In this document: positions 11,347-37,084 of the stretch, piece after piece
How positions within the stretch are numbered: position 1 is the first letter of the stretch
How the letters are laid out: every line of letters begins with the position of its first letter
From: an uncultured Eubacteriales bacterium
Lineage (GTDB): Bacteria; Actinomycetota; Coriobacteriia; Anaerosomatales; JAAXUF01
Length of the DNA: 64,000 bases
NCBI GenBank assembly: GCA_964644675.1
Contig: CAZXWK010000006.1
Coordinates: forward strand, 16,341 to 80,340
Reading direction: 5' to 3'
Notes under the pieces: generated by a model
What the model saw: only the letters and a program-made list of their open reading frames with translations
What the model was told of the DNA's origin: nothing
Databases searched by the model: none
Program-made: the position numbers and the translations under genes

Positions 11347-11379
11347 CCCACAAGCTGGTACGATGGTGAAGCTTGTGGG
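11347..11379. promoter_or_regulatory. 10-bp perfect inverted repeat enclosing a putative -10 of the cytochrome gene
   Basis: CCCACAAGCT-N13-AGCTTGTGGG. The spacer contains GGTACGAT (11357-11364). Confidence 0.5.
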
Positions 11380-14300
11380 GCATTAGGACAGGGGGTCCGC
11401 TGAACGCCCGCAATTCAGCAATCGGGGGGCCTGGGACCCTCCCGACAGTCAGCCGTCTCTCGGCGTTGTTCGAGGGGCGTCTTTCGCGTTACCCCGTTCC
11501 GTCCTCGATTCCTGCGTTTGTCGCGCTGACCAGCGCTTTCGTGACCTTCGTGCTTCTCGCGTGCGCTCTAGCGGCGACGCCCGCGTTCGCGGCTAACCCG
11601 CACACCGGGCTCTCACCGTCGACGGACCAGTGCAAGAGCTGCCACGCCGGCCACGGCTCTCCGAGTTCGTCGTCACTTCTGACCGAGAGCGATCAGAAGG
11701 CCCTCTGCTACGTCTGTCACGACGGCACCCAGAGCGCCTACAACGTCCAACAGGAGTTCGGCGACCGCGCTGATGGCTCGTCGTCCAAGGCCTCGCGGCA
11801 TCCGGTCAGCCCGGGTCAGCTCGAGTGCAGCGGCTGTCACACGCCGCACCGCGGTCCTCTCGAGGGCAACCCGATGTCGCTGGCAGCGGGCGCGTCCGAC
11901 GAGACGACCGGCAACGCCGTGTGTGGCTCATGCCACGGTGCGGGCTCGTCACTTCCGCAGGGCGACATGATGACCAACTACGTGGGCACCGCGCACGATA
12001 CGTCGATGTCCGCCTCCGAGACGGGCGGCTCGAGCATCAAGTGCCTCGCGTGCCACGAGCCCCACGGTTCGGACAACACGGCACTGATCGCCACGACCGT
12101 CCGGAGTCTCAGCGGTGAGACCCGCACCGTCTCCGTCAACGCGAGCACGGGCAGCACGCCTCTGTGCGTGGGGTGCCACGACACCAGCGACGGCACCTTC
12201 GGCGGCGGAGCAGCCTATATGGGCACGCCGCACTCCAGCGCGACGACCTCGACGGTGGCGTCGGTCAACTTCCCTGGAACGACCGGGGACCCGGGAGATT
12301 GCGACAACTGCCACTCGCCGCACGGAACCGGCAAGCCCCACATGGCGCGGGCGGCCGGCGACGACCTGTGCTACGGCTGTCACGACGCGGCCGGGACCAC
12401 CAAGCCCGCCGGCTACTCGTACCAGGGCAAGTCCGCGTACCAGGGTTCCGGGCACGCGACCATGAACGCCGGCGATATCCCGCAGGTCGTGTCGCTGACC
12501 GCCTCGAGCACCGACTTCCAGGCCTTCGAGTCCACGCAGGCTCCCACACCGTCCTCGCCCGGCACGCCCATGACCGCCGAGAAGACCCAGCGGCTCGTCT
12601 CGGTCGACTCGAGCTACGCGGTCACGTCTCTCGCCACGGCCACCGGGCAGCACGACTACCAGGTCTATCGGTTCAAGGTGCCGGCAGACGTCGCCGACAC
12701 CCAGTGGCTCAACCTGAGCTGGGCGGGGTATGGCGAGGAACTCGCCGGCTACGAGACCTCGGTCTCGGTGTGGTCCAAGTCCGCGAACGGCGGGTCCGGC
12801 GGCTGGAGTCGGATCTCAAACGGGCTGATGGCGGACCGCACCGCCGTCACCGCCAAGCTGGCCAACGCGCCGGACCTGATCGACGCGAACGGCTATGTCT
12901 GGGTGATGGGCGACGCCAAGAACGTCCGGCAGTCGACGATCGTAGGAACGCCGTCGGTGTCGTTCCCGACTTCGACCACCGCGCAGATCACGTGGACCAC
13001 CGAGGGATACGCGAGCAGCTGGGTGGATTACGGCATCACCTCGTCGTACGGCAGTACGGTCGGCACCAACACCCGTACCGTCAGCCACTCGGTGACGGTG
13101 CCGATCACCGCCGGCGGCAAGTACCGCTTCCAGGTTCGGGGCACCGCGCGCGATGGCGACAGCAGCTCCAGCGGTGAGCTGGGCTTCTCGGCGTCCGTCG
13201 TCACTCTGGTCCCGGCGCCCGACCTGTCGGGCACCCAGACGACGTTCTCCCAGACGTTCAATTGGGCGCACAACGACCCGGCGGGCGAGCCCTACACGTA
13301 CGACATCCGAATCCGGACGGCGTACTACCCCTACGACCAGACCCTCACCGGCCTCACGGCATCGACCCTGACCACCGACGTCTTCTGCTACGGCTCGAGC
13401 TACGCCATCTACGACTGGCAGGTTCGCGGCCGCGACAAGGACGGCTACTACACGCCGTGGTCGGCGATCGACCAGTTCACGGTCCGAGACCTCACGCCCA
13501 ACCCCGGCGGCTCGTGTCCCTTCCTGTTCGTCTGGAACGGATTCGGCTACGGCTTCGAAGCCGACATCAACACCGCCGGCATGATCGGCAGCAAGAACAC
13601 CTCGGGCTACATCAAGCCCGACCCCAAGGACCGCTACATCCTGACCAACCCGCCCGCCGAGACACTGGGCGGCTACGAGTTCCGCATGGTCGAGGAGCGC
13701 AACGAGATCGACTACACCGACGAGCTCAAGCTCTACACGGTGGACCTGCCCGAAGGCGTCGAGCTCGTCGCCGAGAAGGGCGAGCGCGGCGGCACGAGCC
13801 CGGCATTCCCGGGCGGCCTGCACACGGTGCAGAACCTGCGTGCGCCGGTCTCGGTGTACCGGACCGACACGGGCGAAGATGTCACTGACGCCATCGCGCT
13901 GACCGACGAGCAGCGCGTCCAGCTCAACGAGGACGCGAACATCGGCTTCGACTACAAGACGCTCGAAATCGACCTGGGTGACGTCTCGGGCGCACCTCAG
14001 GTGAAGATCGTCATGAATGCGCAGTCACTCAGGCCGTTCACGCCCGAGGGCCTCGCCCGCCAGCGTTCCTTCGGCGCGGGCACCAAGCTCGAGGTACAGC
14101 GCACCGACGGTACCTGGGAGCTGGTACCGACGAGCGAAGCGACGCTTCCCAATGCCATGGAGTTCGGGCGTACGTACGCGTTCGACATCACCAAGGCGAT
14201 GCACGACACCACGGGCAAGGTGCGTTTCACGTACCTGTTCAAGACGTACATCGACATGATCGGCGTGGACACGTCGCTCGACATCCCGGTCTATCCGGTC

Positions 14301-17300
14301 GAGGTTCCGATGACTTCGGCGTCTCTCGGCAGCCACGGTGTCGACTCCCGGTCGAACAGCACCGACATCTACAAGTACGTGTACGGCACGCAGACCGGCG
14401 AAGGTTCGCTCTTCCCTGGTGCCTACACGCGGTACGGAGACGTCACGCCGCTTCTGCAGTCCACCGATGACAAGTTCGTGGTGTACGGGCAGGGCGACGA
14501 GCTCACGCTGAGGTTCCTCAAGGCGTCAGAGCCGGCACCGGGCACTCGGCGAAGCTTCGTCGTCTATGTCGACGGCTACTACAAGAGCATGAAGTCGGCA
14601 GTGGAGCATGCGGTCGACCCCATGCCGTTCGCGGCGATGTCGAACTTCCCGTACGGCGCCGACGAGCACTACCCGGATGACGCAGACCACGTCGCCTACC
14701 AGCAGGAGTACAACACGCGTCTCGTCGAGGCCACGACTTCGGCAGCGCCGCCACTCGTGGCCACGGCCGAGAGCGCGTCGACGCTGCATCGCTCCCTCAA
14801 TGTCGACTTCGTCTCCGTCGACGTCGGCATACGCATCTCCGCGTCTGAGGGGGGCACCGGCTGTACGGTGTGTCACGCGGTCCACGGCGGCGGCGCCAAG
14901 AACGCTGACGGCACCGAGACCACCGGCACACTGGTCGCGCCCGAGCCTCAGCTGTGCACCGGCTTCGGATCTGGTGGCTGCCACGACAACGCGACGCGCA
15001 CCGCCGCCGGCGTCAACGTCAACGAGCGGATCACCGCGAGCGGCAACAATCTGACGCACCACGATCTGACCGAGTTCGCACAGGCCCAGACGGGCGCGCG
15101 GATCACGTGCACCAACTGCCACGACCCGCACACCAACAACGCCCTCTCACCCAGCTCGAATCCGGATGCAATCACGGCAAGCCTGCCGACGTCGATGGGT
15201 CCGTACCTGGACGCAAATGGTGCGACCTACCTGCTGGTGGGCGCGATGCACGATGCGACCGCACCGACCATCACCTCCGGGCCCACGATAGCGGGCGCCG
15301 GCAGCGGGTCGACCGTGCTTACTCCGACGGTGACGTGGACCACCAACGAGCCCAGCACCTCCTGGATCGACTTCGGCGTTTCGAGCGGCGTCTACATGAT
15401 GTCGTTTGGCAACAACGCTCTCGTCACCTCGCACACCGCGACGGCGACGGGGCTCGAGGTCGACACCACCTACTACTGGCGCGCACGCACTGTCGACGCG
15501 CTCGGCAACGTGCGCACCAGCGCAGAGGCGACCTACAGCACGACCATGCCGGCAGGGTCGATCACTTCGGGACCCACGCTGAGCGGGAACGGGTGGTCGA
15601 ACTACCAGACTCCTTCGGTCACGTGGACGACGAGCGACCAGTTCAGCACGATCCTCGAGTGGGGCACTTCGAGCGGTTCGTACACCTCGGACTACTCGGC
15701 GTCGGCGATGACCACCGCGCACGCCGCCGCTATGAGCGGCCTGACCACCGACACGGTCTACTACTGGCGCGTTCGGGGCGTCGACGCCATCGGGCGCTCG
15801 GTCACGTCGGCTGAGGCGACCTACCAGGCATCTCCGCCGGCGCAACCTGTGATTCTGACCGGGCCGATCATCAGCGGTCCGACGTGGTCGACGTTCACCT
15901 CGCCGACCGTCGCGTGGACCACCTCGGGCCTCACAACCTCGTGGCTTCAGTACGGAACGTCGAGCGGCAGCTACACGTCGTCGGTCGGGACCAACACGCT
16001 TTCGACCACGCATTCGGTGACTGCGAGCAGCCTGACGTCCGGCACCGTCTACTACATGCGGGTCTTCGGCCTTGACCCCGTGAACAGGCTGGTCGTCTCG
16101 AACGAGTTCACGTACACGCCCACGACGCCGGCCGCGCCGATCATCACGGCGGGCCCGACGATCGACGGATCGACGTACGCGAAGTCCTCGAGCCCTGTCA
16201 TCACGTGGACCACCGGGGACATCGCCTCGACCTGGGTCGACTGGGGGACCTCTCCCGGCGTCTACACCTCCAACGTCAACGTTGCGGGTAACACCACGGG
16301 CCACACGGTCACGCTCTCGGGGATGACATACGGCACGACGTACTACTGGCGCGCGCGCAGCGTGGATCCGGATGGGCGCATCGTGACGTCCGGCGAGTCC
16401 GCCTACACACCGGTTGCCTACCCGAGCCCGTCTGTCGCCTCGGTCGCGCCCAACCCCGCGTACTACGACTCGAGCATCCAGGCGGGTGCGGCGGTCAGCG
16501 CGTCCTGTACCGTCTCGACGATCGCCAATTCGAACTCGCTCGAGTATCGGCTCTTGCTCGACAACGTGGCGTACGGGTCGTGGCAGTCGTCCACCGAGTG
16601 GACGCTGCCGACCGTCGGCGTCGGCACGCACGGTCTCAAGGTCGCGGTCCGTGACGCCGCCACGCCCAGTAGCGTGACGACCGGCACGACCGAAACCTAC
16701 TTCGACGTGGTCGACACGTGGGTGGGCTGGGGGTCGTGCCCCTTCGTGTACACGTGGGACGGCAGCAGCTACCGATTCGAGGCCGACACGCTCACGGCGG
16801 CCCGTATCGGCGGCCCCACCGCAACCGGTTTCCAGCAGCCCAACCCCAACGACGCCTACGTGGTCAAGACGGTTCCGGCGGTCGAGGACGGCACCATCAA
16901 CTTCCGGCTCGTCGAGGAGCGCAAGGAAGTCGACTATCTCGACACCTACAAGCTCTTCGCGGTCGACGCACCCGCGAGCCTCCAAGTCTTCGCCGAGAAG
17001 GCCGTCGCCGGCGTCCGCACCTTCCCGCCGCTCGGCTCGGCCCTGCACACCGTTCGCGCACTCCGGGCGCCCGTCTCGGCGGTTCGGACCGACACGGGCG
17101 AGGACGTGCTGGCGGCGATCTCGACAGACGACGGAGACAGGATCGCGCTGAACGAGAGCGCCGAGACGTCGTTCACCTACAAGACGATCGAGCTCGACCT
17201 CGGTGACCAGGTCGCGACGGCGCCGCAGGTCAAGGTAGTCATGAACGCACTCTCCGAGTTCCCGGTCACCCCTGAGGGCATCGAGCGTCGCTTCACCTTC

Positions 17301-19112
17301 GGCGCACCCACCAAGCTCGCCGTACAGGATGCCGACGGCACGTGGCGATCCGTCACGGCCTCGGTGGGCGCGGTTCCGGCGGCGCCTGAGTTCGAGCGGC
17401 CCTACGTGTTCGATCTGACCAAGGCGGTCAAGGGAACCACGGGCAAGGTGCGATTCACGTTCTTGTTCCGCACGCTCATCGACTACATCGCCGTCGACAC
17501 CTCGAAGGACGAGCCCGTCAAGGTGACCGAGGTCCCGCTCGTCTCGGCGAAGCTGTCCTACCACGGCGTGGACCGGTACGCCGTGGTCGACGGTTCGCCT
17601 TCGTACTCGTACGGCACGCCGGTCGCCGCGGGCACCTTCTTCCCGGGTGCCTACACCCGCTACGGCGAAGTGGCACCGCTGCTCGACGCGGTCGACGACA
17701 AGTTCGTCGTGGCCGGCCAGGGCGATCAGCTCGACCTCTCGTTCACGGCTCCCCAAGCGCCGGCGTCGGGGCTCGCGCGCCACTACGTCTTCTCGCCCTA
17801 CGGCTACTACAAGGACGCGAAGACGAGCGTCGCGAAGACCGTCGAGCCGCTGCCGTTCGAGGCGATGTCGAACTACCCGTACCCCGAGACCGAGCAGTAC
17901 CCGACCGATGCCGAGCACACGCGTTACCTCGAGGAGTACAACACGCGCGAGGAGAGCGGACCCGCCGTCCTGAGCAAGCTCGAGCTTCCGGCCCTCGACG
18001 GTACCGCGCTCGCCAGAGCCGCCGGGCCGCTGTCCGATCGGATCGCCCTTGCCGAGAACCCCGGTCGCGTCACCGGGCGGTGGCACGAGCGCCATGCGAC
18101 CGACGTCATCTCGCGCGGCACGACTGTGAGCCGCCTCGTCGCGTCGACCGCGCCCGTTCACTACTCGGTGAACACCGACTACAGCCTGCTGACCGTCGAG
18201 TACCGGCGCGACAGCGTCACGACGCTCGCGCCCGACGCGGGTTGGGCCAGTGCGGGCACGACGCCGACACCGGGCGAACCCGGAACGCCGGCAGAGGCGT
18301 CCGATCTCGACCAGGTTCTGACGCAGAACGGCACGTACTGGATCACGGATATCGCGGCCGCCGAAGGGGTCTACAACTGGCAGCTCATGCGCTATTCGCT
18401 GCCGACGACGCCGTCGCCCGCGGGTGTGCGCAGCGTCCGCGTCGCGTGGACCGGCCACGGCGAGCCGACGGCGAACCACCCGACCGCGCTCTACCTGTGG
18501 AACTTCAAGACCTCGCGCTTCGACGTCCTGGCGAGCGGCACGTACGGCACCGACACCAGCGTCAACTCGGTCCGAGACATGTCTGACGGCGGCGCCAGCT
18601 GCCTGACGTGTCACGACGGTTCCGCTCCCGCCGGCGTGAAGTTCCCCTCAGCGGGCAAGAACATCGCCGGCACCTGGGTGACGGGGGCCAGCGGGGACTG
18701 GCACGGTCCGCGCGTGGGACCAGGTGGCGGCGCCAGCACACCGCTCGCGGCACCCTACACCTACGGCCAGTCCGCGGCGATCCCGTGCGAGACCTGCCAC
18801 GATCCTCACGGGTCGGGCAGCCTCTATCACGTGCCGGCCATGGTCAACGGCGTGCCGAACGTGTCCGTCACTTCGAGCACGACCGTCGAATCGCTGTGCG
18901 CGCCATGCCACACCGGCACCGCATACGACTGGCACTACTGGACGTGCAACTACTGTCACAACGATGCCGACGCGCACGAGGGCGAGCCGACGATCCAGTC
19001 GGGCACCGACTGTCTGTCCTGTCACGGGCACGGCGTGACCTTCACTCACCCGCACGAACGTGCCTTCTGCCACGGTTGTTCGCCCGACGGCGCGCAGTGG
19101 CGTACGTTCTAG
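11373..19112 (+). CDS. Giant secreted multiheme c-type cytochrome with FN3-like repeats and two 'GSCPF' domains
   Basis: 15 canonical CxxCH motifs (CKSCH, CYVCH, CSGCH, CGSCH, CLACH, CVGCH, CDNCH, CYGCH, CTVCH, CTNCH, CLTCH, CETCH, CAPCH, CNYCH, CLSCH), one CTGFGSGGCH, several CxxCHxPH, Sec-type signal ending AATPAFA. True start uncertain (TTG 11373 or 11466). Confidence 0.93.
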   Translation: MWGIRTGGPLNARNSAIGGPGTLPTVSRLSALFEGRLSRYPVPSSIPAFVALTSAFVTFVLLACALAATPAFAANPHTGLSPSTDQCKSCHAGHGSPSSSSLLTESDQKALCYVCHDGTQSAYNVQQEFGDRADGSSSKASRHPVSPGQLECSGCHTPHRGPLEGNPMSLAAGASDETTGNAVCGSCHGAGSSLPQGDMMTNYVGTAHDTSMSASETGGSSIKCLACHEPHGSDNTALIATTVRSLSGETRTVSVNASTGSTPLCVGCHDTSDGTFGGGAAYMGTPHSSATTSTVASVNFPGTTGDPGDCDNCHSPHGTGKPHMARAAGDDLCYGCHDAAGTTKPAGYSYQGKSAYQGSGHATMNAGDIPQVVSLTASSTDFQAFESTQAPTPSSPGTPMTAEKTQRLVSVDSSYAVTSLATATGQHDYQVYRFKVPADVADTQWLNLSWAGYGEELAGYETSVSVWSKSANGGSGGWSRISNGLMADRTAVTAKLANAPDLIDANGYVWVMGDAKNVRQSTIVGTPSVSFPTSTTAQITWTTEGYASSWVDYGITSSYGSTVGTNTRTVSHSVTVPITAGGKYRFQVRGTARDGDSSSSGELGFSASVVTLVPAPDLSGTQTTFSQTFNWAHNDPAGEPYTYDIRIRTAYYPYDQTLTGLTASTLTTDVFCYGSSYAIYDWQVRGRDKDGYYTPWSAIDQFTVRDLTPNPGGSCPFLFVWNGFGYGFEADINTAGMIGSKNTSGYIKPDPKDRYILTNPPAETLGGYEFRMVEERNEIDYTDELKLYTVDLPEGVELVAEKGERGGTSPAFPGGLHTVQNLRAPVSVYRTDTGEDVTDAIALTDEQRVQLNEDANIGFDYKTLEIDLGDVSGAPQVKIVMNAQSLRPFTPEGLARQRSFGAGTKLEVQRTDGTWELVPTSEATLPNAMEFGRTYAFDITKAMHDTTGKVRFTYLFKTYIDMIGVDTSLDIPVYPVEVPMTSASLGSHGVDSRSNSTDIYKYVYGTQTGEGSLFPGAYTRYGDVTPLLQSTDDKFVVYGQGDELTLRFLKASEPAPGTRRSFVVYVDGYYKSMKSAVEHAVDPMPFAAMSNFPYGADEHYPDDADHVAYQQEYNTRLVEATTSAAPPLVATAESASTLHRSLNVDFVSVDVGIRISASEGGTGCTVCHAVHGGGAKNADGTETTGTLVAPEPQLCTGFGSGGCHDNATRTAAGVNVNERITASGNNLTHHDLTEFAQAQTGARITCTNCHDPHTNNALSPSSNPDAITASLPTSMGPYLDANGATYLLVGAMHDATAPTITSGPTIAGAGSGSTVLTPTVTWTTNEPSTSWIDFGVSSGVYMMSFGNNALVTSHTATATGLEVDTTYYWRARTVDALGNVRTSAEATYSTTMPAGSITSGPTLSGNGWSNYQTPSVTWTTSDQFSTILEWGTSSGSYTSDYSASAMTTAHAAAMSGLTTDTVYYWRVRGVDAIGRSVTSAEATYQASPPAQPVILTGPIISGPTWSTFTSPTVAWTTSGLTTSWLQYGTSSGSYTSSVGTNTLSTTHSVTASSLTSGTVYYMRVFGLDPVNRLVVSNEFTYTPTTPAAPIITAGPTIDGSTYAKSSSPVITWTTGDIASTWVDWGTSPGVYTSNVNVAGNTTGHTVTLSGMTYGTTYYWRARSVDPDGRIVTSGESAYTPVAYPSPSVASVAPNPAYYDSSIQAGAAVSASCTVSTIANSNSLEYRLLLDNVAYGSWQSSTEWTLPTVGVGTHGLKVAVRDAATPSSVTTGTTETYFDVVDTWVGWGSCPFVYTWDGSSYRFEADTLTAARIGGPTATGFQQPNPNDAYVVKTVPAVEDGTINFRLVEERKEVDYLDTYKLFAVDAPASLQVFAEKAVAGVRTFPPLGSALHTVRALRAPVSAVRTDTGEDVLAAISTDDGDRIALNESAETSFTYKTIELDLGDQVATAPQVKVVMNALSEFPVTPEGIERRFTFGAPTKLAVQDADGTWRSVTASVGAVPAAPEFERPYVFDLTKAVKGTTGKVRFTFLFRTLIDYIAVDTSKDEPVKVTEVPLVSAKLSYHGVDRYAVVDGSPSYSYGTPVAAGTFFPGAYTRYGEVAPLLDAVDDKFVVAGQGDQLDLSFTAPQAPASGLARHYVFSPYGYYKDAKTSVAKTVEPLPFEAMSNYPYPETEQYPTDAEHTRYLEEYNTREESGPAVLSKLELPALDGTALARAAGPLSDRIALAENPGRVTGRWHERHATDVISRGTTVSRLVASTAPVHYSVNTDYSLLTVEYRRDSVTTLAPDAGWASAGTTPTPGEPGTPAEASDLDQVLTQNGTYWITDIAAAEGVYNWQLMRYSLPTTPSPAGVRSVRVAWTGHGEPTANHPTALYLWNFKTSRFDVLASGTYGTDTSVNSVRDMSDGGASCLTCHDGSAPAGVKFPSAGKNIAGTWVTGASGDWHGPRVGPGGGASTPLAAPYTYGQSAAIPCETCHDPHGSGSLYHVPAMVNGVPNVSVTSSTTVESLCAPCHTGTAYDWHYWTCNYCHNDADAHEGEPTIQSGTDCLSCHGHGVTFTHPHERAFCHGCSPDGAQWRTF
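15330..16420 (+). repeat. Four tandem FN3/purple-acid-phosphatase-N-like repeats in the cytochrome
   Basis: VTWTT/VTWTT/VAWTT/ITWTT start at 15330, 15618, 15909 and 16200 (spacing 288, 291, 291 nt). Each repeat has W/L..(F/W/Y)G..SG.Y, H and T.YY(W/M)R. Confidence 0.85.
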
Positions 19113-22206: not shown

Positions 22207-22251
22207 CGCGGCCGAGGCAACGTCCCCACTCGAGAGCGGCAGGTGGTACCC

Positions 22252-23544
22252 ATGCGCGTACTCGTCATCGGTTCTGGCGGACGCGAGCACGCCATCGTGC
22301 ATGCGCTGGCCGGGTCGCCCCAGGTCGAGGCCATCTTCGCGGCGCCGGGCAACGGCGGCACCTCAGGCGAGCGGGCGGCCGTGAACGTGCAGCTCGACGT
22401 GACCGACCACGACGCGGTGGTCGCGTTCGCGCAGGAGAACCGCGTGGACCTGGCGGTGATCGGTCCCGAGGCACCGCTGGTGGCCGGGCTTGCCGACGAC
22501 CTGCGGGCCGCCCAGATCCCCACCGTGGGCCCGGGTTCGCGAGGTGCCGCGCTCGAAGGCAGCAAGTCGTTCGCGAAGGACCTCATGCTGCGCGCCCACG
22601 TTCCCACGGCAGAGGGACGAGCGTTCACCGAAAGAGGAGAGGCGCTGGCCTACCTGGCCACGCTGGGCGCGCCGGTCGTCGTGAAGGCTGACGGCCTCGC
22701 GGCCGGCAAGGGCGTGACCGTCGCCCCCGACATCGCGACCGCCGCCGCCGCCGTCGAGGAGTGCTTCGATGGCCGCTTCGGCGATGCGGGCATGACCGTG
22801 GTGATCGAGGAGTGCCTCGTCGGACCCGAGGTTTCGCTCCTCGCCTTCGTCGACGGCACCACCGTGCTCCCGATGGCTCCCGCGCAGGACCACAAGCGCG
22901 TGGGCGACGGCGACACCGGTCCGAACACCGGCGGCATGGGCGTCTACTCGCCCGTCCCCGGCATCCCCGCCGACGTCTACGGCGACATGGTCAGCATCCT
23001 GGAGCGAACGGCCGGCGCATTGGTCGCCGAGGGGATCATGTATCGCGGCATCCTGTACGGCGGCTTCATCCTGACCGACGAGGGCCCCAAGGTACTCGAG
23101 TACAACGCCCGCTTCGGCGACCCCGAGACGCAGGTGCTGCTGCCGCGTCTCGAGACCGACCTCGCGCAGGTGCTTCAGGCGGTGGCTCTTGGCGAGCTCG
23201 AGTCGCTCGGCGGGCTCTCGTGGTCGCGCGACGTCGCCGTCTCGGTCGTCGTCGCGAGCGGTGGCTATCCGGGTGACTACGAGACCGGCAAGCCGATCTC
23301 GGGGATCGAAGCGGCGGAGGCCGATCCGGGTGTCGTGGTCTACCATGCCGGCACCAAGCGCCTCGACGACGGTTCGCTCGTCACCGCAGGCGGCCGCGTC
23401 CTCAACGTCACCGCGTTCGCCGAGGACTTCGCGAGCGCCATCCAGAAGGCCTACGAGGCGGTCTCGAAGATCTCGTTCGACGGCGCCTTCTACCGTCACG
23501 ACATCGCCAATCGCGCGGTCGCCGGACAGCCGGCGTCCGAGTAG
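22252..23544 (+). CDS. purD: Phosphoribosylamine--glycine ligase
   Basis: RVLVIGSGGREHA, APGNGG, LEGSKSFAK, VVKADGLAAGKGV, GPNTGGMG, EYNARFGDPETQ. Confidence 0.98.
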   Translation: MRVLVIGSGGREHAIVHALAGSPQVEAIFAAPGNGGTSGERAAVNVQLDVTDHDAVVAFAQENRVDLAVIGPEAPLVAGLADDLRAAQIPTVGPGSRGAALEGSKSFAKDLMLRAHVPTAEGRAFTERGEALAYLATLGAPVVVKADGLAAGKGVTVAPDIATAAAAVEECFDGRFGDAGMTVVIEECLVGPEVSLLAFVDGTTVLPMAPAQDHKRVGDGDTGPNTGGMGVYSPVPGIPADVYGDMVSILERTAGALVAEGIMYRGILYGGFILTDEGPKVLEYNARFGDPETQVLLPRLETDLAQVLQAVALGELESLGGLSWSRDVAVSVVVASGGYPGDYETGKPISGIEAAEADPGVVVYHAGTKRLDDGSLVTAGGRVLNVTAFAEDFASAIQKAYEAVSKISFDGAFYRHDIANRAVAGQPASE

Positions 23545-23566
23545 CCACGCCAAGGAGCCCCGGCAC

Positions 23567-24934
23567 ATGCTATCCGAGCGTCTTCTGACCGCGGTCATGC
23601 GCCGCACGAACGACCGCTATCTCACGCTCGGCCCGTCGGACGCCGACCAGCTGCCCGCCCCGGTGGCCGACCGGCCGTACCTGCTCTACGTGCACGTGCC
23701 GTTCTGCGAGCGGCTCTGCCCCTACTGCTCGTTCAACCGCTTCCCGTACCACGCCGAGCGCGCTACGGCCTACTTCGCCCAGCTTCGCGAAGAGATGCGC
23801 ATGGTGGCGGACCTGGGCTACGACTTCCCCGCGATGTACATCGGGGGCGGCACGCCGACGATCGACATCGACGAGCTCGTTCAGACCATCGACCTCGCGA
23901 AGTCGCTCTTCTCCATCAAGGAGGTCTCCGCCGAGACCAACCCCAACCACCTCTACCCCCAGTGGATCGACCCGCTCGTCGAGCGCGTCGACCGCTTCAG
24001 CGTCGGAGTCCAATCGCTCGACGACGACTTGCTCAAGCAGATGGACCGCTACGACAAGTACGGCTCGGCCGAGCAGATCCTGGAGCGGCTCCAGTCGATC
24101 GAGGGCCGGTTCCACTCGCTCAACGTCGACATGATCTTCAACTTCCCGAGCCAGACTCCCGAGAAGCTCGCGCGCGACATCGAGCTGCTCAAGGCGACGC
24201 GTGCCAACCAGACGACCTTCTACCCGCTCATGGCGTCGCCGGCGGTGCGGGAGTCGCTCAAGCGGACCGTCGGGCCGGTGGACTACGCTCGTGAGGCCCG
24301 CTACTACAAGCAGATCGCCGAGGGGCTCTCGGACACCTTCGCCCCGGCGAGCGCGTGGACGTTCTCGCGCACCGGTGGCGGCATGATCGACGAGTACATC
24401 GTGGACTACGAGGACTACGTGGGCATCGGGAGCGGCGCCTTCTCCTTCCTCGAGGGCGCGCTGTACGTGAACACCTTCTCGCTGAAGAGCTATGCCGAGC
24501 GGATCGGTGCGCGCAAGACGCCCGCGACGCAGATGCGTCGCTTCGACCGCAAGGACCGCATGCGCTACCGCTTCCTCATGTCGCTCTTCGGCATGCGGCT
24601 CGACAAGCGGCAGTTCGCCGAGGACTTCGGCGTGAGCATCGACTTGGGGCTCGCCGTCGAGATGGCGTTCATGCGCTCGGCGGGTGCCTTCACGATCGAC
24701 AACGCGGACGAGTTGGTTCTCTCGGCGACGGGGCGCTACCTGCTCGTCGCGATGATGCGGGAGTTCTTCGTCGGCGTGAACAACCTCCGCGATCAGGCAC
24801 GAAGCGCGCTGACGACCCCCGAGAAGGAGCTGCTCTTCGGCGACGGAGAGAGCCCGTGCGCTCCCTCGGCCGACGAGGCGGTCGCCGCGGCCGTCGCCGA
24901 CACGGAGAGCGCCGAGCACTCGGTCCTTCCCTAG
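23567..24934 (+). CDS. menK: HemN-like class C radical SAM enzyme, probably menaquinone C-methyltransferase (MenK/MqnK family)
   Basis: LYVHVPFCERLCPYCSF (CxxxCxxC), YIGGGTP, SVGVQS, NVDMIFNFP, QTTFYPLM. The MLSERLLT start and QxTxYPLM segment match my recollection of coriobacterial MenK; HMM check needed. Confidence 0.65.
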   Translation: MLSERLLTAVMRRTNDRYLTLGPSDADQLPAPVADRPYLLYVHVPFCERLCPYCSFNRFPYHAERATAYFAQLREEMRMVADLGYDFPAMYIGGGTPTIDIDELVQTIDLAKSLFSIKEVSAETNPNHLYPQWIDPLVERVDRFSVGVQSLDDDLLKQMDRYDKYGSAEQILERLQSIEGRFHSLNVDMIFNFPSQTPEKLARDIELLKATRANQTTFYPLMASPAVRESLKRTVGPVDYAREARYYKQIAEGLSDTFAPASAWTFSRTGGGMIDEYIVDYEDYVGIGSGAFSFLEGALYVNTFSLKSYAERIGARKTPATQMRRFDRKDRMRYRFLMSLFGMRLDKRQFAEDFGVSIDLGLAVEMAFMRSAGAFTIDNADELVLSATGRYLLVAMMREFFVGVNNLRDQARSALTTPEKELLFGDGESPCAPSADEAVAAAVADTESAEHSVLP

Positions 24935-27933: not shown

Positions 27934-29979
27934 TCAGCCGGCATGGACCCGGAGCAGCCGGGCGTTCACGGCGACGATCACCGTCGATGCCGACATGAGC
28001 AGGCCGCCCACGGCCGGGCTCATCATGATGCCGGCGCCCGCGAACACCCCGGCCGCGAGCGGTAGCGCGATCACGTTGTAGCCGAGCGCCCACCACAGGT
28101 TCTGCACCATCTTCGCGTAGGTGGCGCGCGACAGCTCGATGACGGCGGGTACGTCTCGGGGGTCGCTCCGCACCAGCACCACGTCGGCGGTCGCGACCGC
28201 GACGTCCGTGCCTGCCCCGATCGCGATGCCGACGTCGGCCGCCGCCAGCGGCGGGGCGTCGTTGACCCCGTCGCCGACCATCGCGACGACGCGCCCCTCG
28301 CGCTGTATCCGGCGGACGGTCTCGGCCTTCTCGGCGGGGAGGACTCGCGAGAAGATCCGGGAGATCCCGAGGACACGGGCGACGGCGGATGCAACCGCCT
28401 CGGTGTCGCCGGTGAGCATGACGGGCTCGACGCCCATGGCCGTCAGCCGGTCGATCGCGGCCTTCGACTCGGGCCTCGCGAGGTCGGAGAGGGTGATCGC
28501 GCCGATAGCGCGGTCATCGCGGAGCACGAACGCCACGGTGCGGCCGGATCGGGAGAGGTCCTCCGCGGCGTCGGGGACTACGACCGCGGGGTTCTCGGCG
28601 AGGTAGCCAGGGCCGACGACGGAGATCCGGTCGGGGCCGATCGTCCCGGTGACGCCCCTGCCCGGGATCGCGCGGAACTCGCCGACCGGCACCGACGCGT
28701 CGGTCGCGGCGGCGATGGCCCGCGCGACGGGGTGCTCCGAGAGTCGCTCGAGGGAGCCGGCGAGCGCGAGGACGTCATCGGTGGAGAGATCACCCCAGCT
28801 CAGGATCTCGTCGACGCCGAAGCGGCCGAGCGTCAGCGTGCCGGTCTTGTCGAAGACGACGGTGTCGATGAGCCGCGCGTTCTCGAAGGCCATCCGGTTA
28901 CGCACGAGCAGGCCGGAGCGCGCGCCGAGTGCCGTGGAAACCGCGACGACGAGTGGGATCGCGAGCCCCAGGGCGTGCGGACACGCGACCACCATCACGG
29001 TCACCGCGCGCTCCATCGCGAACGCAAGCGGCTGGCCCAGGGCGAGCCATGCGCCGAAGGTGACCGCCCCGCCCGCGAGCGCGACGATCGTGAGCCACAT
29101 CGCAGCTCGGTCCGCGAGGTCCTGCGTACGCGACTTCGACGACTGCGCCTGGCGGACCAGCTCGACGACCTGCGCGAGGTAGGACTCGTCGCCGGTCTTC
29201 GCGACGCGGACGTACAACGCTCCGTCACCGTTGACCGACCCGCCGATGACGGTGTCGCCCGGCGCGCGGCGCACGGGGACGGACTCGCCGGTGAGCAGCG
29301 ACTCGTCCACCGCCGAGACTCCCTCGGTCACGGCGCCGTCGGCGGGGACCTTCTCGGCGGGGCGGACGAGGACGACGTCACCAGGCACGAGGTCGGCCAG
29401 CGGGACGTCGGCGATCGCGCCCTCGGCGTCCACGCGGTGCGCGGCCGGCGGCAACAGCGCGGCGAGCGATTCGAGCGCCTTCGAGGCCTCGCCTATCGAG
29501 CGCATCTCGATCCAGTGGCCCAGAAGCATCACGTCGATGAGCGTGGCGAGCTCCCAGAAGAACGGCATGCCTTCGACGCCCAGAACCGTCGCGGCGCTGT
29601 AGCCGTAGGCCACCGTGATGGCGACCGCGACCAGCGTCATCATGCCGGGTGTGCGTGCACGAAGCTCCCGAACCATGCCCTTGAGGAAGGGGAGTCCACC
29701 GTAGATGTAGAGCACGGTAGAGAGCGCCAGCAGGATCCAGTCCGCGCCCGGCACGGCGACGATGCGGCCTCCGGGGACGAGCGGCACGCCCGGCGAGATG
29801 AGGAGCACCGGAACCGTGAGCGCCAGGCTCACCCAGAAGCGGCGTCTGAAGTCCGCGATCGAGTGGCCCTCGTGGCGGCCGGCGTCGTGCGAGCCGTGCT
29901 CGCGCCCGCTCGCTTGGGGGTGGTCGACCGGCGTGCCATGGTGGGTGGGCTCCGTGCGGTGGTTATCGCTCACCATCAT
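27934..29979 (-). CDS. copB: P1B-3 type copper-translocating ATPase (CopB-like)
   Basis: His-rich N-terminus, FFWELATLIDVMLLGHWIE, LTGES, CPHALGLAIP, DKTGTLT, GDGVND, LGYN, MSAST. Confidence 0.88.
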   Translation of the reverse strand: MMVSDNHRTEPTHHGTPVDHPQASGREHGSHDAGRHEGHSIADFRRRFWVSLALTVPVLLISPGVPLVPGGRIVAVPGADWILLALSTVLYIYGGLPFLKGMVRELRARTPGMMTLVAVAITVAYGYSAATVLGVEGMPFFWELATLIDVMLLGHWIEMRSIGEASKALESLAALLPPAAHRVDAEGAIADVPLADLVPGDVVLVRPAEKVPADGAVTEGVSAVDESLLTGESVPVRRAPGDTVIGGSVNGDGALYVRVAKTGDESYLAQVVELVRQAQSSKSRTQDLADRAAMWLTIVALAGGAVTFGAWLALGQPLAFAMERAVTVMVVACPHALGLAIPLVVAVSTALGARSGLLVRNRMAFENARLIDTVVFDKTGTLTLGRFGVDEILSWGDLSTDDVLALAGSLERLSEHPVARAIAAATDASVPVGEFRAIPGRGVTGTIGPDRISVVGPGYLAENPAVVVPDAAEDLSRSGRTVAFVLRDDRAIGAITLSDLARPESKAAIDRLTAMGVEPVMLTGDTEAVASAVARVLGISRIFSRVLPAEKAETVRRIQREGRVVAMVGDGVNDAPPLAAADVGIAIGAGTDVAVATADVVLVRSDPRDVPAVIELSRATYAKMVQNLWWALGYNVIALPLAAGVFAGAGIMMSPAVGGLLMSASTVIVAVNARLLRVHAG

Positions 29980-30257
29980 CCGCCCAGGGTGCGCAGGATC
30001 TCCTGGTACTGCTCGGGCGTGATCTCGCCACTCGCCAGGCGCCGCTTGGCGATGGCGACCGCCTCGTCGTGTCCCGCGTCACCTGCCGGAAGCGTGGGCG
30101 AAGCCGACTCGTGGCCTCGCGACGCCTTCACCGCCCAGACGACGAGTAGCGCGATCGCCACGATCAGCAGCACCGCGAACAGGAAGATGAGCAGTCCGCC
30201 GTACGGGTTGTATCCGCCCATCATGTTGTAGCCGTAGCCGTATCCTCGACCCATCAT
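29976..30257 (-). CDS. SHOCT domain small membrane protein
   Basis: [15 protein letters not shown], one TM helix, [18 protein letters not shown]. Translationally coupled to copB. Confidence 0.85.
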
Positions 30258-30417
30258 CGCGGGTCATCTCCTCTCGGGGCGACGAACCGCGTCGCCTCCT
30301 GTCACAGAGTGTCTGTACCCGCGTGGTGGACTCGGCGTTCCGGTCGCCCCGCTCGGGTACAAGCTGAGTGCGCGACCGAGCGCGTGCGGACGACCCGCCC
30401 ACCCGAGAGGAGCCGCG

Positions 30418-30831
30418 ATGCGCGAGAAGCTGCAACTGACCGACGATGAGTGGCGCGCGAGGCTGACGCCCGAGCAGTTCCGCGTGCTGCGGCGCGCGGG
30501 CACGGAACCGGCGTTCTCCGGGGCACTCACCGATACCTTCGAGCCGGGCACCTACGTGTGCGCAGGGTGCGGCTCGACGCTGTTCTCCTCGGCGGCCAAG
30601 TTCCACTCGGGCTGTGGCTGGCCGAGCTTCTGGGAGCCGATCGAGCCCGATGCGGTGACCGAGCATCCGGACTACAGCTTCGGCATGCACCGGGTCGAGG
30701 TGCTGTGCGCGGTCTGCGACGGACACCTGGGCCACGTGTTCACGGACGGCCCGGAGCCGACGGGGCTGCGCTACTGCATCAACTCGGTCTCGATCGAGTT
30801 CGAGCCCGGAGAGGCGCCGGCGACCGACTGA
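30418..30831 (+). CDS. msrB: Peptide-methionine (R)-S-oxide reductase
   Basis: GTEPAF, CAGC and CAVC zinc motifs, [24 protein letters not shown]. Confidence 0.97.
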
Positions 30832-30949
30832 ACCCGCGAGCGAGCCGCTGTGGCCCCTCGTGGAGTGCTCGTGAAGGTGCGGTTTCGGGGCCTTCTCGGC
30901 ATGGAACTTGCGTTAGCGCGTACGAAGTCGCACCCGTTGAGGGGATCGA

Positions 30950-31315
30950 GTGTTCTCCACAGCTCACATTCGCAGGATCGCGTTGCCGCTGGTGGTCGTG
31001 TTGGCGATCGTCGCTATCGCCGTGCCCACCTGCCGGATGATCAACTGCGAGATGGACATGAGCAAGGGCATGCCGTTCATGCCCCGTGGCCTGGGCATCT
31101 ACAATCCCGCGTGTGGCGGCGAGTGGCTGACCACGACGGGTCCCAAGGGCGTCGTCCCCGGTGGCGCCGAGTCGCTCCTGCTTTCGTTCGCCGTCGCTGT
31201 CGTGATGGCGGTCGTCCTCTTCGCGCCGCAGCTGTCGGCGCGCCCGGTCTTCGCGTTCTCGGCGCAGCCTCCACCGCCGCCCGAGGACCCTCGCGGAGAG
31301 CGATTCCGAGTCTAA
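30950..31315 (+). CDS. Two-TM Cys/Met-rich small protein with polyproline tail; candidate copper-sensing leader/arrest peptide
   Basis: Hydrophobic segment, then CRMINCEMDMSKGMPFMP...AC, second TM, then tail QPPPPPEDPRGERFRV. GGGGA RBS before GTG. Confidence 0.7.
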   Translation: MFSTAHIRRIALPLVVVLAIVAIAVPTCRMINCEMDMSKGMPFMPRGLGIYNPACGGEWLTTTGPKGVVPGGAESLLLSFAVAVVMAVVLFAPQLSARPVFAFSAQPPPPPEDPRGERFRV

Positions 31316-31319
31316 TACC

Positions 31320-31418
31320 CTCCTCGTAAGTGTCTGAGCTGCGCGTTTGTGCGCTCTCTGACGCTGTCCGCGGGTACCCTCTGTTCCGAGGGTGCCGTCC
31401 GCCTTCATCTACGAGGAG
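31320..31418 (+). promoter_or_regulatory. RBS-sequestering RNA structure (anti-SD / SD)
   Basis: CTCCTCGTA (31320-31328) is the exact reverse complement of TACGAGGAG (31410-31418), which contains the next gene's SD. Internal hairpins at 31341-31354 and 31374-31395. Confidence 0.65.
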
Positions 31419-31427
31419 TCACCTGAA

Positions 31428-32672
31428 GTGTCACCACTGTTCGCATCCATGTTCGCGTTGGGGCTCGCCACGAGCCTCCACTGCATCGGGATGTGCGGGC
31501 CCATGGTCGTCACCTACGCCGTCAAGGGCGAGGAGTCAGGTCCCTGGTACCGCAAGCTCATCCCCAACGCGGCGTACCAGATAGCCAAGATCACGAGCTA
31601 CGTGCTCGTGGGCCTGGCGCTGGGTGCGATCGGCTCGGCGTTCAACCTCAACGGCATCCGCCCCTGGATCATGCTCGCCGCCGGCGTCTTCATGATCATC
31701 TTGGGGCTCGGGATGACCGGAAAGGTGCCGTGGGCCGCTCGTCTCACCCCGCGTCCCCCCAAGTTCCTCATCACCGCGCTCTCGAATCTGCGCCGCAAGG
31801 CCAAGGACGACGCCAGTGAAGGCGAGTCCACCCTGGCGACGCCCATCTCGTTCGGGCTCCTGACGGGCTTCATGCCGTGCGCGCCGCTCCAGGGCGCTCA
31901 GATCGCGGCGGCTGCCACGGGCAGCGCCATCACCGGAGGCGTCGCGATGCTCGCGTTCGGCCTCGGCACGGTGCCGCTCATGCTGCTGTTCGGCACCACG
32001 GCCAGCATGATCCCGATGAACTGGAAGCATCGACTCAACATCGTGCTCGCCATCGTCGTGATGGTGTTCGGCCTCGTGTTCATCAACCGGGCCGCGATGC
32101 TCCTTGGTTCGCCGGTCACGTTCGGCAGCGTCAAGACCGCTGTCGTCGGCACGAGCCCCACCGCGGGGAGCACGGACTTCAAGAAGGGCGCCGATGGCGT
32201 CGTCGAGGTCCCGCTCGCCATCATCAACACGCAGTACCAGCCGAAGCAGGTCACCGTCCCGGCCAACCAGCCGGTGCGCCTGGTGATCGACCGCCAGGAG
32301 GATGCGGCCTGCTCGGACAGACTCGTGATCCGCGAGCTCGGAATCGACGCCGCGCTCGCGCCCAACGGCGTGACCAAGGTCGACATCCCGGCGACGGCCG
32401 CCGGCACGTATCAGATGACGTGCGGCATGGGCATGATGGACGGCCAGCTCATCGTGATCTCGGGATCGGGCGCTGCGCCGGTCTCGAGTTCGACGCCGTG
32501 GATCTGGCTCGCGCTCGCACTGGGCGCGGCCGGCGGCGCGGTCTTCCTCGCGAGCCGCAAGTCGACCGCCGAGAAGGACGCGGCTGATCACAAGCCCGCG
32601 GCAAAGTCCTCGCCCAAGCCGGCGACCAAGCCGGCGACCAAGTCCCAATCCAAGAAGTCATCCAAGCACTAG
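31428..32672 (+). CDS. DsbD_2/TauE-like membrane protein fused to a cupredoxin domain
   Basis: SLHCIGMCGPMV, GFMPCAPLQ, cupredoxin-like ACSD...TCGMGMM, Lys-rich tail. GAGGAG before GTG 31428. Confidence 0.85.
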   Translation: MSPLFASMFALGLATSLHCIGMCGPMVVTYAVKGEESGPWYRKLIPNAAYQIAKITSYVLVGLALGAIGSAFNLNGIRPWIMLAAGVFMIILGLGMTGKVPWAARLTPRPPKFLITALSNLRRKAKDDASEGESTLATPISFGLLTGFMPCAPLQGAQIAAAATGSAITGGVAMLAFGLGTVPLMLLFGTTASMIPMNWKHRLNIVLAIVVMVFGLVFINRAAMLLGSPVTFGSVKTAVVGTSPTAGSTDFKKGADGVVEVPLAIINTQYQPKQVTVPANQPVRLVIDRQEDAACSDRLVIRELGIDAALAPNGVTKVDIPATAAGTYQMTCGMGMMDGQLIVISGSGAAPVSSSTPWIWLALALGAAGGAVFLASRKSTAEKDAADHKPAAKSSPKPATKPATKSQSKKSSKH

Positions 32673-32700
32673 AATCGAATCGACGAAGGAGACAGACCCC

Positions 32701-33297
32701 ATGGCTATGAACAAGCCGACCACCTCATCCGACACCATCCGCTGGGCCGCCATCGCCCTGCTCGTGGTCGTCGCGTTCTTTGGCGCGTACCGGTTCGCGT
32801 CCGCTCGCAGCAGCCTTGCCGCGGCCCAATCCCCGACCACGGCGGCCCAGGGGGCCGGCGCGACCGGCGGTGCTGGGTCGACCGGCGTCCAGACGGCGGC
32901 CAACGGAACCGCCCCCTCCACCCAGGCCGGCGGTTCGGGCTCAAGCTCCGGTGCCGGCTGCGCGTGCTGCGGCGGCTCGGGTACGCCGACGACCAACGGC
33001 GTGACCGGAACCGAGACCGAGGGCGTCGCGACGCTCGCGGACGGCGTGCAGAGGATCTCGGTCGACGTGACGACCGTCTACAACCCCAACGTCATCAAGC
33101 TCAAGGCCGGTGTCCCCGCCGAGATCACCTTCAGCCAGGCCGCCGGGTGCACGGGTATCGTGCACTCCGCCGACCTCGGGTTCGAAGAGGACCTCTCGGC
33201 CGGCCCCAAGACCGTGAAGCTGCAGGGCCTCCAGCCCGGCACCTACGCGTTCTCGTGCGGCATGGACATGGTCTTCGGCAAGATCGTCGTCGAGTAG
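32701..33297 (+). CDS. Membrane-anchored cupredoxin-domain protein (CupA-like)
   Basis: N-terminal TM, Gly/Ser/Thr linker with GCACCG, AGCTG...[14 protein letters not shown]. Confidence 0.85.
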
Positions 33298-33313
33298 AAC
33301 GAGGCGACAGACT

Positions 33314-36300: not shown

Positions 36301-37084
36301 CGTCATGGGCATGAAGGTCGCGTTCGGCAACCGCAAGCTCATGGCGCGCGAGAACATCGATATCTCGGCCTGGGAAGAGCGCATCAGCGCGCTCGAGGAC
36401 GAGGGCAAGACCGTCATGCTCGTCGGCGTCAACGGCGCCAAGCTCGCGGGCATGGTCGCCGTCGCCGACACGCTCAAGCCCAACTCCGCCGAGGCCGTCA
36501 GTCGTCTCACCGCGATGGGCGTCAAGGTATTCATGATCACCGGCGACAACGCCCGCACCGCTCGCGCCATCGCGTCCGAGGCCGGCATCACCCCCGACCA
36601 GGTCCTCGCCGAGGTCCTGCCGGAGCACAAGGCCGAAGAGGTCGCGAAGCTCCAGGCGCAGGGGTTGACCGTAGCCATGGTCGGAGACGGCATCAACGAC
36701 ACGCCCGCGCTCGCGCAAGCCGACGTCGGCATCGCGATGGGCGCCGGCACCGACGTCGCGATGGAGACCGGCGGTATCGTGCTCATCAAGAACGACCTGC
36801 GCGACGTGGTGACCGCCATCGAGCTGTCCCGCGCGACCATGCGCAAGATCCGCCAGAACTTCTTCTGGGCGCTCGGCTACAACACCGTGCTGATGCCGGT
36901 GGCCGCGGTCGGCCTGCTCTCGCCGTTCCCGTGGGTCGCCGGTGCCGCCATGGCGTTCTCGAGCGTCTCGGTGGTCACCAACTCGCTGCTCCTGCGGCTC
37001 TTCAAGCCCAGCCTCAGGACCGCCGAGAAGACCACGCCCCCGACAGACACCCCTCCCGCGGTGGCCGAGCCGGCCGCCGCCTGA
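33314..37084 (+). CDS. copA: P1B-1 copper-translocating ATPase with four HMA domains
   Basis: HMA motifs GMRCHSC, GMHCGAC, GMTCASC twice; [50 protein letters not shown]. Confidence 0.95.
33872..33916 (+). repeat. 6-nt tandem repeat GARCCC encoding (Glu-Pro)n in the CopA linker
   Basis: gagcccgagcccgaacccgagccc... translates as [15 protein letters not shown]. Confidence 0.9.

Follow-up and report, generated by a model that had tools for sequence, protein, structure and literature searches.

A duplicated, predicted all-beta domain with an invariant cysteine in a multihaem cytochrome from an uncultured Coriobacteriia-like bacterium

The decahaem cytochromes MtrC, OmcA and MtrF of Shewanella are extracellular proteins whose haem domains alternate with all-beta domains that carry no haem, and in a beta-barrel domain of MtrC a functional Cys pair governs the binding of flavin (PMC4486940, PMC9973256). 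Members of the Coriobacteriia, some of them iron reducers or anode colonisers, are known to carry 17-37 multihaem cytochromes (PMC9686372, PMC7399161). Gram-positive extracellular electron transfer is poorly understood, including the way in which cytochromes are positioned in the thick cell wall and the role of their non-haem parts. Here we describe a gene in a stretch of 64,000 nucleotides of contig CAZXWK010000006.1 (hereafter the window), in which the open reading frame (ORF) at 11373-19112 on the plus strand, 2,579 aa long from a mechanical TTG start, codes for a secreted multihaem cytochrome with two copies of a ~410-residue domain, named D here, set between its haem blocks.

The alternation of haem and beta-barrel domains in MtrC and OmcA is, by analogy, the closest known way of working for this protein, which shows the same alternation of haem and non-haem all-beta domains. 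The likeness is one of layout only, given that the window protein has no match to PF22113 or any other MtrC/MtrF domain, that the MtrC beta-barrels span ~100-150 residues and carry a CX8C disulfide whereas D spans ~410 residues with a single unpaired Cys, and that the window host is a monoderm without a porin-cytochrome complex, unlike Shewanella. The cytochromes of Anaerosomatales and Coriobacteriales S27 share with the window protein both lineage and presumed role in extracellular electron transfer, and neither D nor an order of haems, a second module X, FN3 domains and D is described in the passages searched of two accounts of Coriobacteriia cytochromes (PMC9686372, PMC7399161).

A second point of comparison is provided by the bacterial CRTAC1/ASPIC-UnbV proteins (TPR, FG-GAP/VCBS propeller and UnbV_ASPIC, ~1,100-1,250 aa), whose unannotated C-terminal ~410 residues are D. 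A preliminary description of this DNA had pointed to similar segments at the C-terminus of FG-GAP/ASPIC-UnbV proteins, and the matches, at ~30% identity over 97% of the query, bear this out. D of the CRTAC1-like proteins and D of the window share the invariant S-C-P, E75, D80, YTRYGD, DD, GD, K368, PxPF..M and NTR. Nothing else is common to the two, since the window protein contains no FG-GAP or FG-GAP_3 (E<=1), UnbV_ASPIC (PF07593) or TPR domain, and its D is internal, duplicated and flanked by haems whereas that of the CRTAC1 type is C-terminal. The experimental structure of CRTAC1, 9etn, aligns only with the propeller/UnbV columns of the profile and not with D. The host protein is a new architectural variant of an extracellular multihaem cytochrome.

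Two copies of domain D among the haem blocks

The duplication noted in the preliminary description is a repeat of one ~410-aa domain: by BLASTP the two copies are identical at 217 of 406 positions (53%), with two gapped positions and E = 3e-148, and 831 of 1239 aligned columns agree at the nucleotide level. Copy 1 runs from GGSCPFLFVWNG to YQQEYNTR, the Arg of 'NTR' ending at 14720, and copy 2 from WGSCPFVYTWDG to YLEEYNTR, ending at 17948. All the motifs that had been listed as shared were found in both (EERNEIDY/EERKEVDY, GKVRFTYLF/GKVRFTFLF, FPGAYTRYG, DDKFVV.GQGD and PF.AMSN(F/Y)PY), and each copy has one Cys, in a Cys-Pro motif, at 13515 and 16737. A hidden Markov model (HMM) of D places the copies at aa 706-1120 and 1786-2195, both scoring ~449 bits against the profile (HMM positions 3-408 and 9-408), and both keep C12, E75, D80, W212, G313, T316, G319, P382, M386 and R413. 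What did not stand is the extent given to the repeated unit, because the ~400-aa domain is accompanied by a second unannotated module of ~120 aa, called X here.

The order of the domains was obtained from self-comparison of the protein, the domain HMM and a search for a second repeated segment. It reads eight haems, X, two FN3 domains, D, two to three haems, four to five FN3 domains, D, X and five haems, as follows (window coordinates, with aa positions in ORF numbering):

11466..11591, plus strand: probable signal peptide, ...RLSRYPVPSSIPAFVALTSAFVTFVLLACALAATPAFA followed by ANPH, to about aa 73, with a putative cleavage site
11631..12383, plus strand: haem block 1, 8 CxxCH, aa 87-337; 8/8 motifs kept in 16/16 orthologues, with 9 conserved extra His
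12498..12872, plus strand: module X copy 1, aa 376-500, an unannotated beta-sandwich, internal repeat with aa 2298-2377
12879..13472, plus strand: two FN3/Ig-like domains, aa ~503-700, repeats with aa 1279-1668, Pur_ac_phosph_N-like family
13482..14735, plus strand: domain D copy 1, aa 704-1121
13515..13517, plus strand: invariant Cys of D copy 1, aa 715, motif G-S-C-P-F
14787..15131, plus strand: haem block 2, aa 1139-1253, 2 CxxCH and a conserved C-x7-CH
14955..14984, plus strand: CTGFGSGGCH, aa 1195-1204, C-x6/7-CH between the two canonical CxxCH, in 16/16 orthologues
15168..16442, plus strand: four to five tandem FN3-like domains, aa 1266-1690, from Pur_ac_phosph_N (4 stretches) and self-comparison
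16716..17963, plus strand: domain D copy 2, aa 1782-2197
16737..16739, plus strand: invariant Cys of D copy 2, aa 1789, motif G-S-C-P-F
Between aa 2197 and 2263, plus strand: linker from D copy 2 to X copy 2, ~65 aa, predicted disordered (predicted local distance difference test, pLDDT, 25-32)
18159..18572, plus strand: module X copy 2, aa 2263-2400, pLDDT 75-86
18600..19079, plus strand: haem block 3, 5 CxxCH, aa 2410-2551, and conserved Cys 2566

The 15 CxxCH motifs of the host protein are all kept in 16/16 orthologues. Above the Pfam cut-offs it matches Paired_CXXCH_1 (115.2 bits, cut-off 20.6), Cytochrome_C7 (44.4 bits, cut-off 24.8) and Cytochrom_c3_2 (34 bits, cut-off 25), and among the NCBIfam models TIGR01905 (83.6 bits, cut-off 25.2). 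The C-x6/7-CH at aa 1195-1204 may be a non-canonical sixteenth haem site. With haem attachment predicted from the motifs, the host protein is a c-type cytochrome of 15 or 16 haems from an uncultured Coriobacteriia-like Gram-positive. Its export signal, recognised by inspection and a hydropathy scan, consists of an N-terminal hydrophobic segment at aa 48-66 and the sequence AFA-A, with the putative cut before the last residue; the C-terminus has neither a membrane anchor nor a sortase motif. At least about 20 sequence clusters have this order of haems, X, FN3 and D, and those with a name belong to Coriobacteriia, Actinomycetota and Clostridia.

Among such cytochromes the identity between the two D copies of one protein spans 29% to 99-100% (P0107 and P0167 versus P0111-P0115 and P0162), and for 14 of 38 D copies the nearest relative is the other copy of the same protein, a pattern which points to repeated duplication or gene conversion rather than to one ancient duplication.

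Spread, partners and conservation of domain D

The expectation that D lies outside any assigned family was upheld. Scanning of the whole protein and of each copy gave no Pfam or NCBIfam match to D at E<=1. Against the sequences of PDB, one copy and the profile as queries returned only Fab noise and, via upstream propeller columns, CRTAC1, and literature searches on the domain, on AF_1625 and on the C-terminal domains of CRTAC1 yielded no account of D. An exhaustive HMMER search detected 2,590 D-matching clusters (50% identity) at E<=1e-3 and 507 at E<=1e-30. Bacterial genomes with D belong to Acidobacteriota, Planctomycetota, Myxococcota, Bacteroidota, Chlorobiaceae and Ca. Electronema, and shortened variants occur in several archaea and also in Bacteroidota. 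In the metagenome-assembled genome (MAG) of the cable bacterium Ca. Electronema (L009 164-2941) a divergent D stands at the N-terminus, followed by PKD and HYR domains.

An AlphaFold2 model of D copy 1, computed from a 77-sequence alignment, reached a pLDDT of 94.8 and a predicted template modelling score of 0.92, only residues 1-9 being disordered (pLDDT below 50). The model is all-beta, with about 25 strands, three short helices and no helical or Rossmann-like core. The structural comparison that had been suggested as a check on D was carried out with Foldseek against PDB and BFVD and gave nothing at E<=1e-3; it returned weak, partial resemblances of a jelly-roll or lectin-like type. The best of these are galactose-binding-domain-like jelly rolls, namely the ligand-binding domain of Eph receptors, neuropilin b1 and b1b2 (discoidin), a chondroitin-binding carbohydrate-binding module and allantoicase, with weaker ones to Gram-positive adhesins and pilins. 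The jelly-roll matches (probability 0.9-0.97, E>=5e-2, template modelling (TM) score to the target 0.45-0.49) cover one lobe only and superpose loosely, at 8-13% identity and a root-mean-square deviation of 6-10 A, and the whole three-lobed arrangement has no counterpart in PDB or BFVD. A second model, of D copy 2 with X copy 2, gave no better Foldseek matches and showed a disordered linker and no sign of X packing on D. D is an autonomous, ~410-residue, all-beta extracytoplasmic domain and represents a large family of bacteria and archaea, uncurated at the dates of the libraries searched, whose fold can be confidently predicted.

A survey of co-occurring domains, likewise proposed beforehand, showed that the association with haems, which had been called unfamiliar, is found repeatedly: among 143 listed cluster representatives, 45 have four or more CxxCH, and 18 of these 45 carry two D copies in the same domain order. 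Among the haem-less representatives (n=47), FG-GAP_3 is present in 31, UnbV_ASPIC in 24 and TPR in about 20, with D located near the C-terminus of the FG-GAP proteins and directly after UnbV_ASPIC where this domain is present. Further partners are LamG_3, DUF7151, disintegrin-like repeats, Big_6, CARDB, PKD/HYR, the sorting tail of the type IX secretion system (T9SS) and NosD/beta-helix. All full-length members inspected by eye have a signal peptide, a membrane anchor or a T9SS tail.

One fusion is of a different kind. In P0176 (L022 1401-4913, 1,170 aa, in a six-member cluster) a signal peptide, X and D lie outside and are followed by five transmembrane helices and, in the cytoplasm, a NapH/NosR-type polyferredoxin (Fer4_5, Fer4, LdpA-type), so that nothing but X-D is extracytoplasmic. 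The gene immediately upstream of P0176 codes for TatA, and 4 identical full-length copies of P0176 come from separate assemblies.

Among 20 genome loci, haem-related neighbours of D genes were seen only in three related Acidobacteriota loci. In this conserved gene row of Acidobacteriaceae/Terriglobales MAGs (L002 2611-13199; L003, L005), a ~1,000-aa protein with 5 CxxCH, Cytochrome_C554-like and TPR regions is followed by three CRTAC1 paralogues, and only the middle paralogue carries D. No haem gene was found near four other CRTAC1-type loci.

Conservation was counted over 282 domain instances in copy-1 numbering, which is used throughout for residues of D. Cys12 is conserved in 235/236 of the instances covering it, Glu75 in 249/250, Asp80 in 248/251, Trp212 in 258/262, Thr316 in 269/269, Met386 in 262/267 and Arg413 in 263/263; Lys368 (252/265), Asn411 (239/263) and the Pro after the Cys (229/237) follow, together with about 35 further positions conserved at 90% or more, many of them Asp. 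About 20 near-invariant residues are polar, mostly Asp and Glu besides Thr316, Arg413 and Lys368, and no near-invariant His or invariant Gln occurs among the conserved columns. The Cys of the Cys-Pro motif is conserved by these counts, and with no family assigned to D neither of the two grounds given beforehand for abandoning the observation applies. Even the shortened variants of archaea and Bacteroidota keep the S-C-P motif; in the archaeal branch conservation does not extend to the Ser ahead of the Cys.

Of 225 full-length instances of the domain, 113 have no Cys but this one, and 17 sequences of more than 600 aa, many of which are partial, contain no other Cys at all, P0185 (a 1,071-aa TPR-FG-GAP-UnbV-D protein) being a full-length example. 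In an alignment of 16 orthologues of the window protein, the conserved Cys outside haem motifs are the two of D and Cys2566 of haem block 3, and the nearby Cys672 and Cys1712 are not conserved. An intramolecular disulfide was rejected for these reasons, and the invariant Cys, which has no conserved partner, is an unpaired thiol. Several other candidates for the Cys were set aside: formylglycine (CxPxR) and lipobox readings of S-C-P by eye, on sequence pattern; a Hint/Ntn self-processing fold on account of the missing His/Asn pattern, the lack of a Pfam Hint match in D and the all-beta sandwiches; and the thioester domain of Gram-positive adhesins because its Cys-paired invariant Gln is absent from the conserved columns. 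K368, N411 and E75 are candidate residues for an isopeptide bond as in CnaA/CnaB-type domains (Lys, Asn/Asp and a catalytic Glu/Asp in contact), and the pilin matches in Foldseek are weak.

Covariation (mutual information with average product correction, 235 sequences) gave only weak hints, which place Cys12 opposite Asp28 in an N-terminal hairpin, this hairpin against the strand of Glu75-Asp88, and the NTR strand beside the YTRYG strand. A comparison of subgroups found no residues specific to haem-linked as against haem-less D, and the job of D is therefore probably the same in both settings.

What domain D may do

We favour, at a probability of about 40%, the reading that D, displayed between haem blocks, is a module which docks to a ligand or a surface and has a reactive thiol or a metal site. 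D would be built from lectin-like jelly-roll sandwiches, its acidic cluster would bind Ca2+ or another metal, and the free thiolate would be part of the binding or metal site. Together with X and the FN3 spacers, both D modules would form non-haem arms between the haem blocks. Such arms would fix the electron conduit within or upon the Gram-positive envelope or keep it in contact with an extracellular partner (mineral, polymer or other cell), and the same role would fall to D at the C-terminus of CRTAC1-like propellers and in archaeal surface proteins composed of signal peptide, X, D and a transmembrane anchor. This reading is preferred because D is duplicated, intact and of confidently predicted fold, with weak likeness only to ligand-binding jelly rolls; because the full-length members inspected carry export or anchoring signals and the partners of D (FG-GAP, UnbV_ASPIC, TPR, LamG_3, PKD, HYR, CARDB, Big_6 and disintegrin-like repeats) are typical of surface and adhesive proteins; because the named fusions of haems and D come from monoderm lineages (Coriobacteriia, Actinomycetota and Clostridia); and because the invariant Cys is often the sole Cys, with the non-haem beta-barrels of MtrC as an analogy.

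Several observations weigh against docking. No ligand was identified, and the best structural match, with a TM score to the target of 0.49, is not significant. The ~20 invariant polar residues kept from archaea to bacteria (Cys, Thr, Arg, Lys and Glu among them) exceed what is usual in binding modules and resemble an active site, and the independent fusion of D to c-type haems and to a NapH/NosR-like polyferredoxin hints at a redox role. Two complete instances lack the Cys (P0180 copy 1 and P0141 copy 1) and keep the other invariant residues, and the one line of evidence that would bring the Cys next to the acidic cluster is the weak covariation described above.

A rival reading is a redox-active or catalytic D, in which the invariant thiol and the Glu/Asp/Lys/Thr/Arg cluster, perhaps with a metal or covalent cofactor, take electrons from the haems or from the polyferredoxin of P0176. 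We regard such a module as unlikely, though a serious contender, and hold in the same low regard the corollary that D acts on an extracellular substrate and makes the cytochrome an enzyme instead of a plain wire. The idea is kept alive by the degree of invariance, nearly total for Cys12, Glu75, Asp80, Thr316 and Arg413, and by the independent haem and iron-sulfur fusions: multihaem fusion recurs in 45 of the 143 listed representatives, in the five-helix polyferredoxin protein X-D is the sole external part of a NosR/NapH-like layout, and in the three Acidobacteriota loci the 5-haem TPR protein lies beside CRTAC1 paralogues of which one has D. CRTAC1-family genes are also found between genes for homologues of hydrazine-synthase subunits (PMC12758564). 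An unpaired extracellular Cys would, moreover, be expected to remain a thiolate in anaerobes. On the other hand, a redox domain is missing from two thirds of the representatives listed, no haem gene lies near the four other CRTAC1-type loci, D shows no cofactor-binding motif, conserved His or match to an oxidoreductase fold, no residue is specific to the haem subgroup, and the long disordered linkers and FN3 spacers argue against tight electronic coupling to the haems.

In its most far-reaching form, with thiol and acidic/Thr/Arg/Lys cluster handling a metal, a sulfur species or a covalent cofactor as the terminal site of haem chains in Gram-positives and of a NosR/NapH-like polyferredoxin in others, the redox proposal is quite improbable. 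Were this form true, D would represent a new class of cell-surface oxidoreductase and give a function to thousands of 'CRTAC1 family' and hypothetical proteins. D could prove to be a new docking module for electron conduits or a new redox site, and defining D and X as families would improve the annotation of many proteins now named 'hypothetical' or 'CRTAC1 family'.

It is also rather unlikely that D is a rigid structural spacer or oligomerisation module, in which the conserved residues hold the fold, Ca2+ sites included, and the Cys is buried and does no chemistry. The very high model confidence, the many conserved Gly, Pro, Trp and Leu, the company of FN3 spacers and flexible linkers, and the Cys-less members that keep all else would suit such a part, as would the free variation between orthologues in copy number and in copy-to-copy identity (29% to 100%). 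A buried Cys, however, is rarely 99.6% invariant from archaea to bacteria at 25% identity, Ser, Ala or Val being the usual substitutes, and this one sits at the edge of the domain, right behind the predicted disordered residues 1-9, and is kept in S-C-P even by the shortened archaeal and Bacteroidota variants.

That position at the edge of the fold, after small residues (Gly, Ser, Thr or Ala, then Ser), is the attraction of self-processing or cross-linking, whether by autoproteolysis between Ser and Cys of G-S-C-P, leaving non-covalently held fragments, or by a thioester- or isopeptide-type bond to a partner or the cell wall. The invariant Lys368 and Glu75, the mostly conserved Asn411 and the weak Foldseek likeness to Gram-positive pilins and adhesins, which carry internal cross-links, could be read in the same sense, and so could five archaeal giants in which a Hint domain ends 7-13 residues before C-P-F-V-Y-T-W-D-G, so that the processed end would lie near the Cys. 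We nevertheless consider this very unlikely, given that D has no conserved His, Asn or Gln as in Hint, Ntn, GPS/SEA and thioester domains and no Pfam Hint match, that no strand is modelled upstream of the Cys, that cleavage would sever the cytochrome into three pieces and that the archaeal branch does not keep a Ser ahead of the Cys.

Haem-regulatory (CP) motifs consist of Cys-Pro and a hydrophobic residue, and S-C-P-F in both copies, at the junction of a flexible segment and in a domain adjoining haem blocks, has this form; ligation by the thiolate of one of the protein's own c-haems or of a non-covalent haem b is still the least probable of the readings, for the motif is equally invariant in haem-less proteins and the conserved extra His in the 16 orthologues (9 for 8 haems, 5 for 3 and 5-6 for 5) are enough for bis-His ligation, so that the Cys of D is not required as an axial ligand.

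Module X, archaeal giants and genomic setting

X is a ~120-aa beta-sandwich (model pLDDT 75-86) with the motifs P-T-P-x-x-P-G and W-x-G-H-G-E-P-T, and 48 of the proteins examined have it alongside D. Simple proteins consisting of a signal peptide, X and D, the majority with a transmembrane anchor at the end, have X directly N-terminal of D. Its probable counterpart among described families is PF27237 (AF_1625_C), which does not cover D: in precomputed annotation this family was assigned only to P0044 and P0176, which share only X and D, the N-terminal modules of both match the X of the cytochromes by phmmer (E 1e-7 to 4e-4), and a precomputed 'faint' hit exists for the window protein. X is for these reasons probably PF27237. 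D-only proteins lack Pfam annotation, and D is in no family of either Pfam version.

A further short motif, H-x-S-(V/L)-N-x-D-(Y/F)-x-x-(L/V)-x-V, begins at His361, His1139 and His2263 (12453-12455, 14787-14789 and 18159-18161 of the window). It lies 20-70 residues after each D, opens X copy 2, stands without an X body after D copy 1, and recurs in P0044 as a strand after D and ahead of the transmembrane anchor. The three His are kept in 14-16 of 16 orthologues, and strand complementation or haem ligation are candidate roles.

The archaeal giants mentioned above, which are surface proteins (L011, L015, L016, L017 and L019, from Methanomassiliicoccales, Thermoplasmata and Methanobacteriota MAGs) have a Hint/intein-like domain before D, ending in ...ILVHN 7-13 residues ahead of the C-P-F-V-Y-T-W-D-G start of the shortened D. 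Three of them have 1,826-1,902 aa, and L017 and L019 are cut by the contig end. Hint-mediated cleavage would place D at a new N-terminus.

The cytochrome gene has the codon-position GC signature of a real gene (GC at third positions, 0.88, in window DNA of 65-72% GC). Protein P0106 of the public collections, translated from a Logan contig of a sludge metagenome, is the same protein with the same D copies, read from GTG 11541 as 2,523 aa, and DNA of the gene was found in 3 sludge-metagenome runs. None of the sampled words of the region occurred in any of 3 small metatranscriptomes that stem from the same samples of sludge. It is ambiguous where translation starts (11373-11591, with TTG 11373, TTG 11466 and GTG 11541): a start at GTG 11541 leaves the signal peptide without a charged N-region, and the in-frame TTG 11466 adds 'MFEGRLSRYPVPSS...', a more typical one. 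By D, the nearest genome is an uncultured Coriobacteriia MAG (57% identity), and the named orthologues, from Coriobacteriia, Actinomycetota and Clostridia MAGs, are called 'hypothetical protein' or 'cytochrome c3 family protein' in the databases.

A scan of the 64-kb window with the domain HMM and for haem motifs found no further D copy or other multihaem ORF. Upstream of the cytochrome gene lie HlyD/ABC-2 transporter genes and downstream purA, GT2, purD and a radical SAM gene; the same neighbours are not conserved beside the closest orthologue, and the cytochrome gene therefore stands alone, with no operon partner. Elsewhere in the window, a metal-handling cluster at 27934-37084 comprises a P-type ATPase on the minus strand (27934-29979), a DsbD-like membrane protein that carries a fused cupredoxin-like domain (31392-32672) and another P-type ATPase, of 1,256 aa and with four HMA domains (33314-37084). 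The mechanical ORFs of purD (22243-23544) and the radical SAM gene (23189-24934) overlap by ~355 nt within 22243-24934, and the true start of the radical SAM gene is probably downstream of the TTG listed for it.

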